Virus record (IMG/VR): IMGVR_UViG_3300046820_000975
Span: 32,001-96,000 of that record
DNA length: 64,000 nt
Direction: 5' to 3' (one strand)
From: a virus
Shown: piece after piece, positions 3,270 to 17,412 of the stretch
Layout of the letters: every line of letters begins with the position of its first letter
Position numbering within the stretch: position 1 is the stretch's first letter
Program-made: the position numbers and the translations under genes
The notes under the pieces: model-generated
Seen by the model: the letters and a program-made list of their open reading frames with translations, nothing else
Told to the model about the DNA's origin: nothing
The model's database searches: none

Positions 3270-3563
3270 TTAAACGTTAAATTTCAAGAACTTATTTTTG
3301 TCCTTGTTGACGATAATATACTCGCAGTTAGTGTATTTCTTACGCGAGCGTGAGACATGATTAATAGCATCTGCTAATTCAATAAACTCACAGGTGTACA
3401 TGTTCTTTGTACTTAAATTAAGACGTATAACCAAATAATGTGGCACAACATGTGAATGCTGTACCACATACTTGATTGGCTCTCTATTTAAATTCTTTCG
3501 CAAGCACCTTAACTTTACTGACATACGTGCTATCTTCCGCATAATTCTTTGATAGATACTCAT
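3270..3563 (-). CDS. Hypothetical protein (start uncertain)
   Basis: Fills the gap in the operon; its 5' end overlaps the glucosaminidase gene by 80 nt. Confidence 0.45.
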   Translation of the reverse strand: MSIYQRIMRKIARMSVKLRCLRKNLNREPIKYVVQHSHVVPHYLVIRLNLSTKNMYTCEFIELADAINHVSRSRKKYTNCEYIIVNKDKNKFLKFNV

Positions 3564-4020
3564 AGTATTCTGCTTCTGAATGTATGTTTTTCAAATAACA
3601 GCACTGGAATAGTGCATAATCAAGAACAGATTCACGCCAGTGTTGATACACTGCGTGTCCATTCTCTGCACCTTTGTTTGTTGATACTCTACCACGAGCT
3701 TCTCTCATACCAAACAAATTGTTGTTAGATTTAAAAATCTGACTACTAAAATGTCCAGTCTCAAGACAAGCTTGTGCATATACGATGTGAGGGAATTGAA
3801 TCTGTAAGTCTTTCAAGTATGACTTAAACGCTTCAGGTGTAAAAGTGTCCGTCGTTGTGACAGACACTTTATACTCCCGCGGTGATTCAAAACCTCTTAC
3901 AAAACCATAGTGGTAACTAGTAAACCCAACTATTGATACAGTCAGTAACCAGACAATCCACCAAGGTTTGGGACGATGTTCTTTGAATTGTAAAGAATTC
4001 AAGTCAAACTTGTAGATCAT
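3484..4020 (-). CDS. GH73/FlgJ-like peptidoglycan glucosaminidase with an N-terminal TM anchor (possible endolysin)
   Basis: AQACLETG catalytic-Glu motif, NNLFGM and YAEDSTY (YATD-like) motifs; hydrophobic segment WWIVWLLTVSIVGF. Confidence 0.8.
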   Translation of the reverse strand: MIYKFDLNSLQFKEHRPKPWWIVWLLTVSIVGFTSYHYGFVRGFESPREYKVSVTTTDTFTPEAFKSYLKDLQIQFPHIVYAQACLETGHFSSQIFKSNNNLFGMREARGRVSTNKGAENGHAVYQHWRESVLDYALFQCCYLKNIHSEAEYYEYLSKNYAEDSTYVSKVKVLAKEFK

Positions 4021-4565: not shown

Positions 4566-5061
4566 ACTCAGCTACGATTTTAGAAATAAACTCTTCATGA
4601 GTCATGTCTTCGTTAGCAAAGTAATCCTCTAAAGTAATCTTGTGGCTGATTTCTTCTATTGTAGGAATACCTAAACGAGAATTGTCATGTCCACGGTGTG
4701 GTTCATGTAGAACTGCCAAAGACTTTGGTTTACCATTCTCTTCGCCAACGTATGTCACACTTGAATAATAACCAGAACGATTTCTTATCAAAGAAGCATT
4801 CCAACCAAAGTGGAAGGTATCATCTGAGTACTTATCAATACAAGTGTCGCGTAAATTTTCAAACTCTTCTTCAAGGTTTTTCAAGTTATTGTATAAACTG
4901 TTTAACTCCTTCAGTTTTGATTCTGCTTGTTTGAACTCAGGAGTTTTCTTTACGTCAGCAAACTTTTTGTTGTTTTGCTGTTTACGCTTTGTAACGATTT
5001 CGTCTTGGATACGTGTAGCGAGAATCTTCACTACATTCTGGGGCATAGTTTTCTTTGCCAT
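4555..5061 (-). CDS. Hypothetical coiled-coil protein
   Basis: 168-aa ORF with a heptad-like N-terminal half. Confidence 0.7.
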   Translation of the reverse strand: MAKKTMPQNVVKILATRIQDEIVTKRKQQNNKKFADVKKTPEFKQAESKLKELNSLYNNLKNLEEEFENLRDTCIDKYSDDTFHFGWNASLIRNRSGYYSSVTYVGEENGKPKSLAVLHEPHRGHDNSRLGIPTIEEISHKITLEDYFANEDMTHEEFISKIVAEYAK

Positions 5062-5075
5062 GATTTGTTATTGGT

Positions 5076-5435
5076 TTAAATGTTATTACTTTTTGAGAAC
5101 TTTGTAACTTCTGAGAACTTACCGTTTACATAGCGGTGAAATATCAGCGTGTCACAGCGTTCATCTTCCATACAATCTTGGGTATAAGAACCCGCGTGTG
5201 TCTTAGAGCGGATAGTACCAAAGTACTTAGTACCTGTGGTAGTGATATACTCATAAGCAGCGTAGGGTCTCTTAACAGTTTCGCGGTGGATGCTACCATC
5301 CTCTTCATAGTAAAGAGCATCATAGTAACCGCATTGATCACAAAAGGTGGTCTCTCCTTCTTCTATAAGAAGATAAAGACTTGCATGATGATTGTCACAG
5401 TAAGGACAAATACATTCTTCTTGTGTAGTAGACAT
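5076..5435 (-). CDS. Hypothetical Zn-ribbon protein
   Basis: CPYC ... CDQCG motifs. Confidence 0.7.
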   Translation of the reverse strand: MSTTQEECICPYCDNHHASLYLLIEEGETTFCDQCGYYDALYYEEDGSIHRETVKRPYAAYEYITTTGTKYFGTIRSKTHAGSYTQDCMEDERCDTLIFHRYVNGKFSEVTKFSKSNNI

Positions 5436-5543
5436 AAGTTAGTTCTGATTAAAAGTTAATGATTTCTTGAGTACATTGACTAGTTGCTATCTAGTGTCGC
5501 GACTTTTGTGGCTAACTAGCACTTTAGTTAAGGGTGATAGAAG

Positions 5544-5570
5544 GTGAGAGTGGTGTTTTACCACCCTCAC
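5544..5570 (-). terminator. Post-stop hairpin
   Basis: Minus-strand GUGAGGGUGGU-AAAAC-ACCACUCUCAC, an 11-bp stem with one G-U pair. Confidence 0.5.
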
Positions 5571-5600
5571 AATCAATCACTTACGCACAAATACCACCAA

Positions 5601-6092
5601 TTAAGATGGTAAGTTAGCAGCTTTACGTGCAGCTAAGAACTCACGCACCTCAGCGGTGTTGTCATTCTGTACTTTAACGTCAGCAGTAGTACCTGTCTCA
5701 TCATAGAAAGAGTATCTGATGATACGCTCTCCACCATAAGTAAGTTCCATGCCATCATTACCTGCACGTTTTACGTACGATTTGATAGCATCTTCCCACG
5801 TCATTGCTTTGTCATTGTGGATGACATTAACAATATGGTCAGGAACTTCAGATTCTAAATACTCTTGAACGCAAATACGTCCTGGCATAGTACCATACTT
5901 GGCGTCTTTAATTAACCCTTGAAGGTCAGACACTTTACCGCGTATTAAACAACTCTTCTCCTTTACAGAGATGAAGCCATTGTTAATACTACGTACGCTT
6001 TCAGACAAGCGAATGTAACCATACTCAGGGTTACTGTCATAAGCTGTGAACATTGCACCAGCTTTGTTAGGCATAATTCTTACATTAGACAT
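5601..6092 (-). CDS. Hypothetical protein, paralog of 6383-6877
   Basis: Start reassigned to ATG 6092 (MSNVRIMP), which lies 28 nt from the CCAAACACCC motif. Shares SNPE, ESE.P, G.RI.R...YD and the C-terminal ANLPS with its neighbour. Confidence 0.8.
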   Translation of the reverse strand: MSNVRIMPNKAGAMFTAYDSNPEYGYIRLSESVRSINNGFISVKEKSCLIRGKVSDLQGLIKDAKYGTMPGRICVQEYLESEVPDHIVNVIHNDKAMTWEDAIKSYVKRAGNDGMELTYGGERIIRYSFYDETGTTADVKVQNDNTAEVREFLAARKAANLPS

Positions 6093-6347
6093 AAGGTGTA
6101 AATTTAGATTAGATTGGTTGGGTGTTTGGAATGGGGTTGTGAATGGGGGTAGTGGGTGGGATGGTAGTGGGTTTGTGTACATGGTTTTGATTTGGTCTTG
6201 ATTCCTTGCGGGGTACAGTTCTGATTATCCATGAGAGTTTGACTGGGTACACTATTGCTGTAACCCTTTCTGAGTATTTGGGGTGGTTGGAATGGGATAG
6301 TGAATTGGTGTACCCTGTTTTGTGGACAGGGTTGTGGACAAGGTGTA

Positions 6348-6371
6348 GAGCGTAGCATTTCTACTACGCTC
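6348..6371 (-). terminator. Post-stop hairpin with GAAA tetraloop
   Basis: Minus-strand GAGCGUAGUA-GAAA-UGCUACGCUC. Confidence 0.55.
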
Positions 6372-6382
6372 ACTGTCCTTGT

Positions 6383-6877
6383 TTAGGAAGGCAAGTTAGC
6401 ACCGCCTGCACGTACTGCTGTACGCCATTGGGCAATCTCTTCCTGGTTGTCGTGTTCTACACGCACGTCTTGCATAACGTTATCAGGGTCGTAATCTGTG
6501 AAACGCAAGATTCTGTCTCCTTCTTTACGCAAGTAAGGAGCATCATCTTGTGGACGTTTCAAGAATGGTTGTACTGCTACTTCATAGTCAACGTCTGAAC
6601 GTAGACGTGACTTAAAAGATTCAGGACATTCACTCTCTGTGAACTCTCTAACAACTATCTGTCCTGGTACAGGACTGTTAGCATAAGTGTTGACAAACAT
6701 TTGAAGAATGTCTTTCTTAGCACGCAAGATAGTGGTGCGTGTCTGCTTGTCAATGAACCCGCCTGCTCTGTGTACAATCTTATCAGATTGCATAACGCAG
6801 TATGCGAATTCAGGGTTAGACGCGTAGTAACGAACTTTGTTACCTGTCTTTGGGTCTGTAATGATAGTTACTGACAT
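6383..6877 (-). CDS. Hypothetical protein, paralog of 5601-6092
   Basis: 164 aa; colinear motif sharing with the adjacent gene and the same ANLPS C-terminus. Confidence 0.8.
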   Translation of the reverse strand: MSVTIITDPKTGNKVRYYASNPEFAYCVMQSDKIVHRAGGFIDKQTRTTILRAKKDILQMFVNTYANSPVPGQIVVREFTESECPESFKSRLRSDVDYEVAVQPFLKRPQDDAPYLRKEGDRILRFTDYDPDNVMQDVRVEHDNQEEIAQWRTAVRAGGANLPS

Positions 6878-6925: not shown

Positions 6926-6955
6926 GGTAGGTAGAGTTTGTGTACCCTACCTACC
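6926..6955 (-). terminator. Post-stop hairpin
   Basis: GGTAGGTAGAGT-N6-ACCCTACCTACC, 12 bp with one G-U pair on the minus strand. Confidence 0.55.
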
Positions 6956-7377: not shown

Positions 7378-7474
7378 AGGTATGAGTTTTAGTTAGATAG
7401 ATAGGGTGTTTGGAAATGAAATGAGAATGTATACAACAGCACTACCTATTAGAATAGTGCTGTATTGTACACAA

Positions 7475-7491: not shown

Positions 7492-8043
7492 TTAGTGGTT
7501 CTCAGGAACAGGTGGTAACTCAGATACCCAATTCAAATACTGACTGCCTTTAATCCATTCATTGTTTTCTTTTGCATTGCGTGTGTTAGACTCAATGTCT
7601 TTGAGTTTCTCACAAGTTGTAGTCATGTAAGACGGTACAAGTCTGTCTTCAAAGAAATCAGTTGGCGTTTCAGTTTCTGTTGCATAAGTATCGTCTGTGA
7701 AATACTTACGTGATGTCTTTACTGACATGTAACTGATGACAACCTTATTAGTAATAGGGTTGTAAGATTCAATGTTACCGTCAATCAAATGAGTTTCAAC
7801 GCGTTCATCTTTCTTACTACGATACATAGCAAATACAGTTTGATTGATAGGCATCTGGTTGATGCTTTCATCATTAATACAGAACAGCATATCAAGGAGC
7901 GTGTTTACTTGGTCATTGCTGAATTCTGAATTTAACGCTTCAATGATTACAGGCATGTTTCTTGCAAACAAAATTGAGTTGTTTGTAATAGCATTGTGAC
8001 CTGCCTTGATGATTAGTTCTTGTTGTTTTTTTGAGAGTTCCAT
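7492..8043 (-). CDS. Hypothetical protein
   Basis: 183 aa; upstream motif at 8080. Confidence 0.75.
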   Translation of the reverse strand: MELSKKQQELIIKAGHNAITNNSILFARNMPVIIEALNSEFSNDQVNTLLDMLFCINDESINQMPINQTVFAMYRSKKDERVETHLIDGNIESYNPITNKVVISYMSVKTSRKYFTDDTYATETETPTDFFEDRLVPSYMTTTCEKLKDIESNTRNAKENNEWIKGSQYLNWVSELPPVPENH

Positions 8044-8102
8044 GATTAGTGGGGTTTATAGTTAATAATTAGTTTAAAAGGGTGTTTGGGTTATTAAACC
8101 CC

Positions 8103-8351
8103 CTATATCATTTCTGGTATAGGGAGTTTAACAAACATTTTCTTACCTGACGCGCTTACTTTAAACTTGCGAAAGGTGTTTACAAATACGCCAGTATTGT
8201 CTATGTGCGTAAATTGTTTCATAGCACGTAGATGGTTGATGGCACCTATTCTTGTAGGGAATGTTTTGGTGCTATCAATGGAGAAACTTATTTCTCCTAA
8301 CTCATTAAAGAACTGCGTAGTGTAGTTCAGTTGGAATAAAGTCTTTTGCAT
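8103..8351 (-). CDS. Hypothetical protein
   Basis: 82 aa; upstream motif at 8375. Confidence 0.7.
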   Translation of the reverse strand: MQKTLFQLNYTTQFFNELGEISFSIDSTKTFPTRIGAINHLRAMKQFTHIDNTGVFVNTFRKFKVSASGKKMFVKLPIPEMI

Positions 8352-8394
8352 ATGGTTTATATTTAGTTATCAAAGGGTGTTTGGAAATGAATAG

Positions 8395-8870
8395 TCAATC
8401 GTTTTGATCACATGTGGCAGCAGGTGGTTTGGTACTGATGCGTGGTTTTGATATCGAGTTTTGATATCAGTGCACACGTTGAGTTAATCCATTCACTTCA
8501 CTGTTGGCTATGGTCTTACAACCAACAGTGATTTGAATTTCAAGCATTACTACAGCGCCTATCTGTAGTACAAGTTCCCAGCTGGACACTTATATCCCTT
8601 TCGGGGGACTGACCCTACACTGCTGTAAGGTGACTGTACTGTTGACTGCTCATCCTGACCAGGACTTCCTTGTAGTTTTTACATATTCACTCCCAACAGC
8701 GAGTAATATAACTCAACCTATAAAGGTTAAGAGAAGCAACAACACATCAAATGCTTATAATGTGTTATTGCTAAAAATAACTGTAACAGACACTTTCAGT
8801 CTGAAGCTCCCGCACTCTTTGTAGAGGTCTAGGGCGCATTTGCAATACCTTTACAGGATTACAGTTATGT
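8395..8870 (-). ncRNA. Candidate large structured non-coding RNA
   Basis: No minus-strand ORF of 60 aa or more behind motif copy 8881. At least 8 stems are present; the mismatches in the 14-bp (8498-8531) and 15-bp (8735-8772) stems are G-U pairs only on the minus strand. Confidence 0.55.
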
Positions 8871-8910
8871 TAGTTTATTTGGGTGTTTGGAAATGACTAG
8901 AAAAAAAGGT

Positions 8911-8936
8911 GAGCAGTTTATTCACGTGCTCAGGTG
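8911..8936 (-). ncRNA. Small H-type pseudoknot motif, copy 1
   Basis: CAC-CUGAGCA-C-GUG-AAUAAAC-UGCUC, just after the 8943 stop codon and followed by a U-tract. Confidence 0.55.
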
Positions 8937-8942
8937 TAGCAG

Positions 8943-9299
8943 TTAACATTCAGGAGATTGATTCTCCAATGCGTTGAGTTCACACTCATTTTTTAAATCT
9001 TCCATGTGACTGTACCAAGGAACATATGTTATAACATTGCGAGGAATATCAATGAATCCTGTACCTGCTACCATGTGGTGTACTCTTTGGTCATCAAGGT
9101 TAATAATGACATCTCCTACACATGTGCTTCTTTTATCAAGGAGAGCATACTCTTCTGAGAAATCATTTTGTGCTAACTTAAATGCGTCTTCCAGCGAGTT
9201 AGCTTCAAGAGAATGTATAAGGTCATACTTATATACACCGCTTTTCATCTCATGGTTTATTGCACCAGTTGATGGGTGAAAAATAAGAAATGTTTTCAT
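8943..9299 (-). CDS. Hypothetical protein with a YodL-like motif
   Basis: Start reassigned to ATG 9299 (MKTFLIFH). KRSTCVGDVI resembles the YodL RS(L/M)SVGDV motif. Confidence 0.6.
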   Translation of the reverse strand: MKTFLIFHPSTGAINHEMKSGVYKYDLIHSLEANSLEDAFKLAQNDFSEEYALLDKRSTCVGDVIINLDDQRVHHMVAGTGFIDIPRNVITYVPWYSHMEDLKNECELNALENQSPEC

Positions 9300-9338
9300 G
9301 TTACAATTGTTTTTGTTGGTTATTAAATGATTGAAAAT

Positions 9339-9370: not shown

Positions 9371-9493
9371 TTAGTGTATTGGACCACAAGTTTGGTGGTA
9401 TACACGCCATTGCTTACAGTTGTGCGACTCAGTAGCACAAGAAGCGAACAATACTATGCTTAAAAGCACGATGATGTAGAAAGAGAATTTCAT
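9371..9493 (-). CDS. Small lipoprotein (40 aa)
   Basis: MKFSFYIIVLLSIVLFASC signal peptide II with a lipobox; motif variant 31 nt upstream. Confidence 0.65.
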   Translation of the reverse strand: MKFSFYIIVLLSIVLFASCATESHNCKQWRVYHQTCGPIH

Positions 9494-12069: not shown

Positions 12070-12140
12070 AGCGGGATGGTGTAGTGGTAGCATGCAAGCC
12101 TCATAAGCTAGAGATCTAGGTTCAATTCCTAGTCCCGCAA
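12070..12140 (+). tRNA. tRNA with CAT anticodon (Met/fMet-like; Ile2 not excluded)
   Basis: Acceptor GCGGGA/TCCCGC with an A1:A72 mismatch, D-arm with TGG, anticodon loop CTCATAA, T-arm CTAGG-TTCAATT-CCTAG; no encoded CCA. Confidence 0.88.
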
Positions 12141-15211: not shown

Positions 15212-17412
15212 TGTATCGTAGTATACCCACATATAATGACACAACTGGTGAGTGGTCACACACAGATTTTGGAACACGTGAAGAGTTTGTAGAATTTTTG
15301 TGGTCTATATTCAAAGAACCTGGCTTGTATAACTTTGATGAAACATCATTAAAGTTTAATGAGCAAGCACGTATCTTTAACAAGAATGGATTCTACTGTG
15401 TAGCACCAAACAGAAGTAAGGACTTTGTACAGTACTGGGATGACCAAAAAGATAAATGCAGAAATGGTGTTATTTATATTGGTAAATCTGGCACATGGTA
15501 TCTACCACGTGGATATTACATGTGGTTAAACTTCTTACCTATCTATAATAAAGAGGTAGCCAAGTTTACATTTGCTGATGTTAGAGATGCACAGTACCAT
15601 ATGGCATTGTATGAAGAGATTGCAAAACACTCTTATAAACATGTGGCAATCCTTAAGAAACGTCAGATTGCGTCTTCTTACTTCCACGCTGGTATTTTAA
15701 TTAACTCATTCTGGTTTGAAGAAGGTTCTATCAATAAGATTGCTGGTTCCTTAAAAGATTACATTAATGAGAAAGGTACATGGCGTTTTTTGGAAGAGTA
15801 CAGAAACTTCCTGAATACACATACAGGTTGGTATAGACCATGTAATCCAGATAAGGTACTTAACTGGGAACAGAAGATTGAGGTAAACCAAGGTGGCAAA
15901 AAACGTGACGTTGGTTTAAAATCAGTTGTTATTGGTACAGCGTTAGATAAAGATCCAACAAATGGTGTCGGTGGTCCTTGTTCTATCTTCTTTCATGAGG
16001 AAGCAGGTATTGCTCATCAAATGGGTACAACACTAGAGTATTTGCTACCTGCCATGAAATCTGGTATGATCTATACAGGTATGTTTATTGCAGCAGGATC
16101 TGTGGGTGATTTGGAACAATGTGAACCTTTGAAAGATCTTATACTAAATCCTGACGCAAAAGATGTACTTAAAGTAAGTACAGATCTGTTAGATGATCAG
16201 GGTCAAATAGGAGAATGTGGATTGTTTATACCTGAGCAATGGAGCATGTTACCATGTATAGACAACTTTGGTAACAGTCTTGTTGAGAAAGCAAAAGAAT
16301 TAATTCTGGCAGAACGTATTGAGTGGAAACAGAAACTAAGAGCTGATGAATATCAGTTACGTGTTTCTCAGAAACCTATGTATATCTCAGAAGCTTTCAG
16401 TTCAAGAAAAGCCAGTGTGTTTCCTATGCACTTGGTAACCAAGCAGTTACGCAGAATTGAGGACAAAGAATACTTTACAGAACATCTTGAATTATCACGC
16501 GATGACGCAGGTAAAGTAGTAGCTAAAGAATCACGTAAGCTACCTATCAGAGAGTTTCCTATATCTCCAAAGACACAAGACAAGGAGGGCGTGTTATGCG
16601 TTTACGAAAGACCTGCAAAAGATCCTGCGTTTGGAACTTATTATGCAAGTATTGACCCTGTATCTGAAGGTAAAACAACAACATCAGATTCATTGTGTTC
16701 TATATATGTTTACAAAACTAGCTTAGAAGTAACAAAGCATAAAGCTGATGGTACAATAGAACAGTCAATTGAAAGAGACAAAATTGTAGCTTCTTGGTGT
16801 GGACGTTTTGACGATCTTAATAAAACGCATGAACGTCTGGAAATGATTATTGAGTGGTATAATGCTTGGACAATTGTGGAAAATAACGTTTCTTTGTTTA
16901 TCCAGTACATGATATCACGCAGAAAACAAAAGTATTTGGTACCAAAAAGCCAGATTATGTTCCTTAAAGAACTAGGTTCTAACTCCAATGTATACCAAGA
17001 GTATGGTTGGAGAAACGTAGGTAACATCTTTAAAGGAAACTTGATATCTTATGCTGTGCAGTTTTTGGAAGAAGAGATACACCATGAAACTAAAACTGAT
17101 GGGGAGATTGTTAAAACTACCTATGGTATTGAGCGTATCCCAGATATCATGTTATTAAAAGAAATGCAAGCTTACAGAGATGGATTGAACGTGGATAGAC
17201 TAGTAAGTTTTTGCGCATTGGTGGCATTTGCAAGGGTTCAAGAGTCAAACAGAGGATATTCACGTCGTGTTGAACGAGAAGACACCAGTAATTTGGATAA
17301 CTTGTCTAAAAGAGGTATATTAAGTATGAACCCCCACCATAATAACAGAAGGGGGCAAACAACTGTTTCACCATACCACAAACCTCGCAATCCATTTAGA
17401 AACCTACGTTAG
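15211..17412 (+). CDS. terL: Terminase large subunit
   Basis: LKKRQIASSY ATPase motif, FFHEEAG Walker B and YASIDPV RuvC-like nuclease motif; directly precedes the portal gene. Confidence 0.92.
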   Translation: MYRSIPTYNDTTGEWSHTDFGTREEFVEFLWSIFKEPGLYNFDETSLKFNEQARIFNKNGFYCVAPNRSKDFVQYWDDQKDKCRNGVIYIGKSGTWYLPRGYYMWLNFLPIYNKEVAKFTFADVRDAQYHMALYEEIAKHSYKHVAILKKRQIASSYFHAGILINSFWFEEGSINKIAGSLKDYINEKGTWRFLEEYRNFLNTHTGWYRPCNPDKVLNWEQKIEVNQGGKKRDVGLKSVVIGTALDKDPTNGVGGPCSIFFHEEAGIAHQMGTTLEYLLPAMKSGMIYTGMFIAAGSVGDLEQCEPLKDLILNPDAKDVLKVSTDLLDDQGQIGECGLFIPEQWSMLPCIDNFGNSLVEKAKELILAERIEWKQKLRADEYQLRVSQKPMYISEAFSSRKASVFPMHLVTKQLRRIEDKEYFTEHLELSRDDAGKVVAKESRKLPIREFPISPKTQDKEGVLCVYERPAKDPAFGTYYASIDPVSEGKTTTSDSLCSIYVYKTSLEVTKHKADGTIEQSIERDKIVASWCGRFDDLNKTHERLEMIIEWYNAWTIVENNVSLFIQYMISRRKQKYLVPKSQIMFLKELGSNSNVYQEYGWRNVGNIFKGNLISYAVQFLEEEIHHETKTDGEIVKTTYGIERIPDIMLLKEMQAYRDGLNVDRLVSFCALVAFARVQESNRGYSRRVEREDTSNLDNLSKRGILSMNPHHNNRRGQTTVSPYHKPRNPFRNLR

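Follow-up and report, generated by a model that had tools for sequence, protein, structure and literature searches.

What does a phage keep in the longest gene-free stretch of an otherwise tightly packed genome, when that stretch stands behind what looks like a start signal for an early gene? We addressed this question for positions 8395–8870 of a 64,000-nt window, by which we mean the whole stretch of DNA analysed here, corresponding to bases 32001–96000 of a 112-kb IMG/VR virus record (all positions are those of the window unless stated otherwise). The phage is a freshwater crAss-like phage. Its portal and terminase proteins are 23–31% identical to those of crAss-like and other Bacteroidota phages, its genome encodes two proteins of more than 2000 residues, and parts of the window occur in 24 runs, 22 of which are labelled freshwater or aquatic metagenome or 'synthetic metagenome'. 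Genes to the left of ~11400 are carried on the minus strand.

A bipartite motif, CCAAACACCC-N7-CTAA, is present in 10 copies (including two one-mismatch variants), all on the minus strand and all between positions 6129 and 10157; no further copy was found outside this interval in the 112-kb genome. In eight of the 10 cases an ATG follows 24–37 nt past the motif, behind an open A-rich leader, and most of the cassettes defined in this way are closed by a hairpin of 11–17 bp just ahead of the next motif. From its position we infer that the motif is an early promoter. No Pfam or PHROG family was found among the proteins encoded in the array and next to it. Relatives identified through the adjacent PhoH gene (74–87% identity in that protein) have the same flanking genes but lack both the motif and everything that separates the 68-aa membrane gene from the paralogue pair in the window, indicating that the array is lineage-specific and hypervariable.

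The array also contains a small lipoprotein-like early gene (9371–9493, minus strand) with a counterpart in the closest relative (L002:12153–12269); the lipobox reads LFASC in the window and ITSC in the relative, and the C-terminal half, CKQ(W/Y)R(V/I)YHQTCGPIH, is conserved between the two. A second ORF-poor stretch lies between two paralogous genes (6130–6382, minus strand), where two hairpins after the stop are followed by a degenerate motif copy, CCAACCACCC (6281–6290), and then by ~150 nt of C/A-rich sequence with no convincing gene. This region folds with a z-score of −4.4, to which the hairpins contribute most, and it looks like a decayed cassette head.

The stretch at 8395–8870 is placed as the other cassettes of the array are, behind a full motif copy that is itself preceded by a terminator-like hairpin. 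The features of the locus, together with the hairpins that close other cassettes, are as follows.

8901–8932, minus strand: terminator-like end of the upstream 118-aa gene, consisting of a 6-bp hairpin (TGAGCA/TGCTCA, 8910–8932), CC and T7 (8901–8907)
8881–8900, minus strand: left 20-nt direct repeat, which contains the motif; the two repeats are spaced 506 nt apart
8870–8900, minus strand: promoter-like motif of the cassette, with CCAAACACCC at 8881–8890, N7, and CTAA at 8870–8873
8375–8880, minus strand: accessory unit of 506 nt, from direct repeat to direct repeat
8773–8869, minus strand: module A, a four-way junction with three hairpins (one with a GUAA loop), followed by U5
8859–8868 with 8777–8786, minus strand: 10-bp closing helix of module A, AUAACUGUAA/UUACAGUUAU, starting 1 nt past CTAA
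8542–8772, minus strand: module B, 231 nt, the unit common to other natural contexts; fold z-score −3.3
8735–8772, minus strand: 15-bp hairpin of module B, with 2 G.U pairs
8712–8731, minus strand: 8-bp hairpin of module B
Within 8542–8772, minus strand: 3' multibranch domain of module B, including CCC-GAAA-GGG, plus smaller hairpins
Near 8548–8570, minus strand: 7-bp hairpin
8395–8541, minus strand: module C, fold z-score −4.9, with a tail that has no clear terminator
8498–8531, minus strand: 14-bp hairpin of module C, with 2 G.U pairs
Within 8395–8541, minus strand: hairpin of module C built on GATATC, and two copies of GATATCAAAAC
8375–8394, minus strand: right 20-nt direct repeat, 95% identical to 8881–8900 and serving as the motif copy of the next cassette
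8103–8351, minus strand: next cassette, an 82-aa gene headed by the motif within 8375–8394
8091–8134, 7436–7463, 6926–6955 and 5544–5570: cassette-boundary hairpins of 11–17 bp, from a hairpin scan

An earlier note on this DNA had reported that no substantial ORF follows the motif copy at 8881, and this held under four genetic codes: no gene was found in 8395–8870 with table 11 or when TAG was read as Q, TGA as W or TAA as Q. The genome carries a single tRNA, tRNA-Met, and thus no suppressor tRNA. On the minus strand no ORF exceeds 40 aa, the next longest has 35 aa, and both of these start with GTG. Past the motif copy at 8870–8890, the first ATG to appear opens a frame of only 3 codons, and the three frames contain 16, 15 and 8 stops per 197 codons. 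Since stops are dense in all six frames, a recent pseudogene is ruled out. Apart from one spurious 64-aa frame on the plus strand, no longer gene-free stretch exists in the genome. Its G+C content is 41%, compared with 35% for the genome. The stretch is present as a single copy, which rules out a diversity-generating retroelement (DGR) or other internal repeat, and its longest exact complementary match elsewhere in the genome is 14 nt, which is no more than chance would give (~0.2–0.4 such matches expected), so that we claim no antisense target. We conclude that the 506-nt unit is non-coding.

In place of the open A-rich leader and the ATG 24–37 nt after the motif, a helix begins here 1 nt past CTAA. 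The leader is the least accessible among all ten cassettes, with a probability of being unpaired of 0.44 as compared with 0.60–0.92 in the eight clear coding cassettes. The stems listed in the earlier note were all recovered by minimum free energy folding, a repeat scan and a hairpin scan. Module A folds at −26.3 kcal/mol (z-score −2.6), and its inverted repeat was found, and the limits of module B coincide with helix ends: it opens exactly where the 15-bp hairpin starts and runs to the final base of the helix enclosing the 3' multibranch domain.

As RNA of the minus strand, 8395–8870 folds at −153.4 kcal/mol (z-score −5.26 to −5.6), and none of 100 shuffled sequences folded as well; the z-score of the plus strand is −3.90. 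The 15-bp and 14-bp hairpins together contain four non-Watson-Crick pairs, each of which is G.U on the minus strand, and no mismatch; these two long hairpins thus pair perfectly as RNA of that strand and in no other form. Likewise, the GAAA and GUAA tetraloops are of the GNRA type on the minus strand only. These G.U pairs, the GNRA loops and the lower z-score bear out the proposal that the minus strand is the meaningful one. The use of folding as an argument for a dedicated RNA fared less evenly. Structure beyond that of shuffled sequence was confirmed, but its specificity was not, since adjacent coding genes fold equally well: 476-nt windows on the minus strand of neighbouring genes gave z-scores of −4.9 (5601–6076), −5.0 (6390–6865) and −4.05 (3484–3959). 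The first two of these windows lie inside two paralogous genes, and PhoH and three other windows gave z-scores of about −1. The strong folding of the stretch is therefore real and not peculiar to it, and structure is a general trait of the early transcripts of this phage.

The stretch matched no known RNA family. None of the 4227 models of Rfam 15, which include introns, ribozymes, RNase P, SRP, 6S and riboswitches, hit it, the sole gathering-level match in the window being tRNA-Met at 12070. With E-values of up to 10 over 8000–9300 and 8500–8800, only miRNA, snoRNA and lncRNA noise of 14–22 bits was obtained, and the group I and group II intron models gave no score on the region. ARAGORN found no tmRNA in the window or in the 112-kb genome and no tRNA in the region; by ARAGORN and Rfam together, the hallmarks of tmRNA (tRNA-like domain, T-loop, tag frame) were absent from the window and the whole genome. 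The failure of the first inspection to match tmRNA, RNase P, SRP or introns was thus reproduced, and nothing points to the ribozyme, decoy or antitoxin mimic that it had offered as candidates.

Searches for homologues of the sequence itself were also negative. Neither sensitive blastn nor a megablast of 8 kb detected a homologue in GenBank phages, and the 80 IMG/VR relatives found via PhoH contained no motif and no match to the RNA stretch. Scans of IMG/VR returned only 12 single chance matches with the bipartite motif, none with a junction sequence from run X3 (described below), and 9 chance matches and none with two 17-mers of module B; searches there with the flanking proteins were empty or gave chance matches. 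A blastn and nhmmer comparison with 226 loci revealed no homologue of the stretch, and neither the 40-aa nor the 64-aa frame has one among 5.8 billion proteins. The 118-aa neighbour has one relative in JGI metagenomes (L094, 58% identity), and the ORF-less stretch of that contig is unrelated. There (L094:503–1443) a repeated 21-mer, AGTTTTAGGTGTAAAACACAA, occurs at 90, which is 45 nt ahead of a gene, and again at 865, where 560 ORF-less nt come after it (fold z-score −3.7), a parallel arrangement of a signal followed by a non-coding stretch, in unrelated sequence.

A separate hairpin motif, R1, was observed in related freshwater phages. It consists of UCCCAAGGGUGAGC-AGUUGUAAU, a variable insert of 20–280 nt and AUUACAACU-GAGUGCAGAGGGA. 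Its exact 17-mer occurs in at least 120 IMG/VR stretches, as against ~12 expected by chance from a similar 17-base scan, and among the matches listed there are 83 distinct instances with both halves, 82 of them intergenic. Positions in the distal helix show compensatory changes, and the 3' end usually lies 30–100 nt before unrelated small ORFs. R1 has no match in Rfam, and in 185,579 prokaryote genomes it was found on 2 short MAG contigs only. R1 may represent a novel RNA motif, or it may mark the start of cassettes in that lineage. Instances are located as follows.

L004:12816–12907, L015:15798–15933, L060:13203–13393 and L060:15584–15662: R1
L021:7000–7128, L021:8143–8273 and L071:4744–4809, minus strand: R1
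L094:574–695: R1
Among L105–L224: ~75 more instances of R1

Module A resembles R1, which occupies ORF-less early gaps upstream of diverse small genes, in its outline of UGUAAU/UUACA around variable hairpins, but the conserved internal-loop sequences of R1 are missing from it. A covariance model built from 24 instances and run over the whole window with filters off gave a best E-value of 1.5 and no match within 8395–8870.

Natural variants define the limits of the unit. In run X5, from another study, a 3.9-kb contig with ~95% identity to the window joins 8374 directly to 8881, skipping 506 nt, and the 12 letters shared at the joint are the motif inside the 20-nt direct repeat. Since the joint falls within the direct repeats, this contig represents a wild strain that lacks exactly this cassette, from one motif copy to the next. 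Another contig of X5 departs from the window below 8905 and thus reveals a third arrangement at the junction. At least three natural arrangements therefore exist downstream of the 118-aa gene (the cassette, none, or a different sequence), which marks the promoter-like repeats as a recombination hot spot. We conclude that the 506-nt unit is subject to an exact presence/absence polymorphism.

Part of the unit also occurs elsewhere. In run X3, a strain resembling the window (depth 14) is interrupted at 8578 and at 8776, and other contigs (depth ~18–22) match 8542–8761/8772 only and are unlike the window beyond these points; depth over module B is 24 versus 14 elsewhere. The contigs of the second kind are ~93% identical to module B and place it, in freshwater metagenomes, in at least two other contexts with unrelated flanks. 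One of their loose ends, read on the minus strand, carries TTCCAAAAACCC-N7-CTAA flush against 8772, the base at which the 15-bp hairpin starts. A further loose end has a diverged hairpin arm behind CTGAATGCAGAGTGG, which fits the 3' half of the R1 motif of related phages at 12 of 15 positions. In the B variants 1 nt is inserted behind 8655, which speaks against a protein being encoded on one strand or the other. Two of the X3 variants (8721 T>A and the T inserted behind 8655) recur in a 151-nt contig over 8608–8757 from metatranscriptome X24; this contig is of read length and strandless, its library may include some DNA, and we take it as a weak hint of expression. Metatranscriptome run X23 yielded no contig on the region. 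We conclude that module B is reused in other natural contexts. The stretch had been described as a single RNA of ~480 nt or, alternatively, as several adjacent small RNAs. The alternative fits better, since the central 231 nt travel alone and, in one contig, stand immediately behind a motif copy of their own.

Taken together, the unit is an accessory cassette that is real and well delimited, encodes no protein and has strong structure. The reading that we prefer, tentatively and at somewhat less than an even chance, is that it is an accessory early cassette whose payload comprises two or three RNA modules and which has its analogue in the early long non-coding RNAs of the crAss-like phage phi14:2. 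Several observations weigh against this reading: adjacent coding genes reach equal folding z-scores, the two long hairpins resemble those that close cassettes, a natural strain does without the unit, no clear terminator precedes the next motif copy, and the promoter role of the motif is putative, no common motif having been found upstream of the early transcripts of phi14:2.

The stretch might instead be inert filler, the wreck of one or more former cassettes made up of leftover closing hairpins and decayed sequence, which may be read through or carried as a passenger with no function of its own. Hairpins of 11–17 bp are found at cassette boundaries generally, a second ORF-poor stretch (6130–6290) follows a degenerate copy of the motif, a wild strain lacks the unit, its folding is no stronger than that of nearby genes, and it has no homologues in IMG/VR or in GenBank phages. 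However, the preservation of module B at ~93% in at least two contexts with unrelated flanks is hard to explain for junk. Stops dense in all frames do not suit a recent pseudogene, and the G.U strand bias, the GNRA loops and the coincidence of module boundaries with helix ends are further points against filler, which we regard as unlikely while giving it appreciable weight.

A bolder form of the RNA reading is that module B is a horizontally exchanged 'RNA gene cassette', an early counter-defence or host-takeover RNA that different phage lineages place behind unrelated start signals. These signals would be CCAAACACCC-N7-CTAA in the window and likewise in one of the X3 contigs, while a second such contig has an R1-like element. 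We consider this rather improbable; if true, non-coding RNAs would rank with protein anti-defence genes among the accessory equipment that environmental crAss-like phages shuffle.

The reuse of module B raises a different possibility, that it is part of a selfish mobile RNA element (an ORF-less intron or a sequence derived from one) that would invade genes as well as intergenic sites of phages, and of which the window would contain a free-standing or decayed copy. Besides the occurrence of B in several different contexts, the observation that speaks for this is a third loose end in X3. Below 8542, ~8–14 nt are followed by 16 letters that are identical to TerL codons ~200–205 of L027 and L028, in the same sense as B and with an in-frame stop five codons upstream. 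The corresponding sites are:

15826–15839 of the window: TerL junction site
L027:14483: TerL junction site

This junction, seen in one short contig, could be an intron-like insertion of B in the TerL gene of another phage or could result from a chimeric contig. At the codon ~200 site, TerL is uninterrupted in all of the 60+ relatives compared, in which the sole insertion is an intein at residue 257. Moreover, the group I and II models do not score even at E-values of up to 10, and in the window the unit is intergenic and bounded by promoter-like repeats rather than exons. A mobile element is therefore improbable in our view. The intein itself (L129:7036–8084, minus strand) starts with Cys, ends with His-Asn followed by Cys, and has a homing-endonuclease-like middle.

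Alternatively, the stretch might act in cis, as a structured leader or as a processing or stability platform for the 82-aa gene or for a polycistronic early transcript. No terminator was found from 8395 to the next motif copy, and the whole early transcript is unusually structured, as such a role would have it. Yet a separate motif copy heads the 82-aa gene, whose leader is open as is normal in the array, the gene is retained in the strain without the unit, and module B is found apart from it, which leaves a cis-acting RNA with a small share of our confidence, roughly on the level of an outside chance.

A role at the DNA level, as a replication origin or as a packaging or recombination site using DNA hairpins or repeats, is very unlikely. 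The region does contain many inverted repeats and the two copies of GATATCAAAAC, and the GC-skew minimum is ~3 kb away, at 5000–6000. However, the minimum is not at the region, a G+C content of 41% in a genome of 35% provides no AT-rich unwinding region, the stems require G.U pairs and are hence imperfect as DNA, and the unit is dispensable in a wild strain. A replication origin in particular was rejected, since neither composition nor the skew minimum fits. The cumulative skew minimum of the genome (genome positions 37–38 kb) falls at the distal end of the early array, and the skew of the array is opposite to that of the remaining minus-strand genes.

Finally, encoded micropeptides are scarcely credible: a 26-aa ATG frame (40 aa from GTG) at 8467–8589 and a 12-aa frame near 8650 can be read, but there is no ATG at the usual cassette position, the first one there opening just 3 codons, the frames are buried in long helices, the 40-aa and 64-aa frames lack homologues among 5.8 billion proteins, and the variants tolerate a 1-nt indel.

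Returning to an accessory early cassette of RNA modules, we infer that its RNA is made, is stable and has some function. Transcription of the minus strand would start from, or run through, the CCAAACACCC-N7-CTAA signal, and the transcript would fold into two or three independent modules, A (~95 nt), B (231 nt) and C (~145 nt). If the motif is a promoter, the long helix that lies 0–1 nt past CTAA (in module A here, in module B in the X3 contig) would give a 5'-protected, stable RNA. The likeliest role would be that of a trans-acting structured RNA at the start of infection, which may bind or titrate a host or phage factor. Recombination between copies of the signal would add the cassette or remove it, and module B would pass as one piece from phage genome to phage genome.

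Annotation is almost wholly lacking for the early regions of crAss-like phages, and the one available transcriptome, that of phi14:2, contains abundant unexplained early non-coding RNAs. The unit described here constitutes a clean natural experiment, with a sharp start signal, strains that differ by exactly the unit and a core module that is reused. If the RNA is functional, a comparison of strains with and without it could reveal the role of such RNAs, and phages would be seen to trade RNA modules as they do small anti-host genes. If it is junk or the relic of an intron, it shows how cassette arrays decay and recombine at promoter repeats.

How does the unit compare with known systems? It is unrelated to any described RNA family, but the phenomenon has already been seen in one crAss-like phage. 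In the Cellulophaga phage phi14:2, long non-coding early RNAs arise from the g004–g005 and g005–g006 intergenic regions (Drobysheva et al., bioRxiv 10.1101/2020.03.07.982082). They are present from the earliest time point on at a level above that of most genes, their function was left open, and no common motif was found upstream of the early transcripts (bioRxiv 10.1101/2020.03.07.982082). In both phages, a stretch of several hundred nt without an ORF lies on the early strand within the early-gene cluster. The differences are several: the phi14:2 regions have no blastn match to 8395–8870 and fold no better than shuffled sequences (z-scores −0.3 and −1.2), and a sharp motif precedes the unit here whereas the early transcripts of phi14:2 share none. 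Furthermore, the phi14:2 RNAs are known as transcripts, whereas the present unit is known from its sequence and one RNA-library contig. One of the phi14:2 regions contains a tmRNA, which the window phage lacks.

This tmRNA of phi14:2 (NC_021806; L095:4031–4500) is unannotated in the record; ARAGORN predicts the tag peptide GSSVQKLAMVA, and the Rfam model scores 46 bits against a gathering threshold of 47 (E-value 1.4e-16). Like phage-encoded tmRNA, a structured non-coding RNA of 350–470 nt that in phi14:2 lies in the early region, the unit would be a structured non-coding RNA among early genes.

Phages also use RNA as anti-defence elements, among them RNA anti-CRISPRs made of solitary repeat units and ToxI-like antitoxin mimics. 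Like these small promoter-driven RNAs, which are carried among early or anti-host genes, the unit is strain-variable accessory cargo, and in its case the RNA is predicted. Such elements resemble a repeat or antitoxin of the host, whereas the stretch contains no array-like repeat. In the early region of T7, RNase III processing hairpins between genes punctuate and stabilise the early RNAs, and the 11–17-bp boundary hairpins of the window are similar to them. The T7 elements are single hairpins of ~50 nt between genes, whereas here a multi-domain stretch of 480 nt stands behind a start signal of its own.
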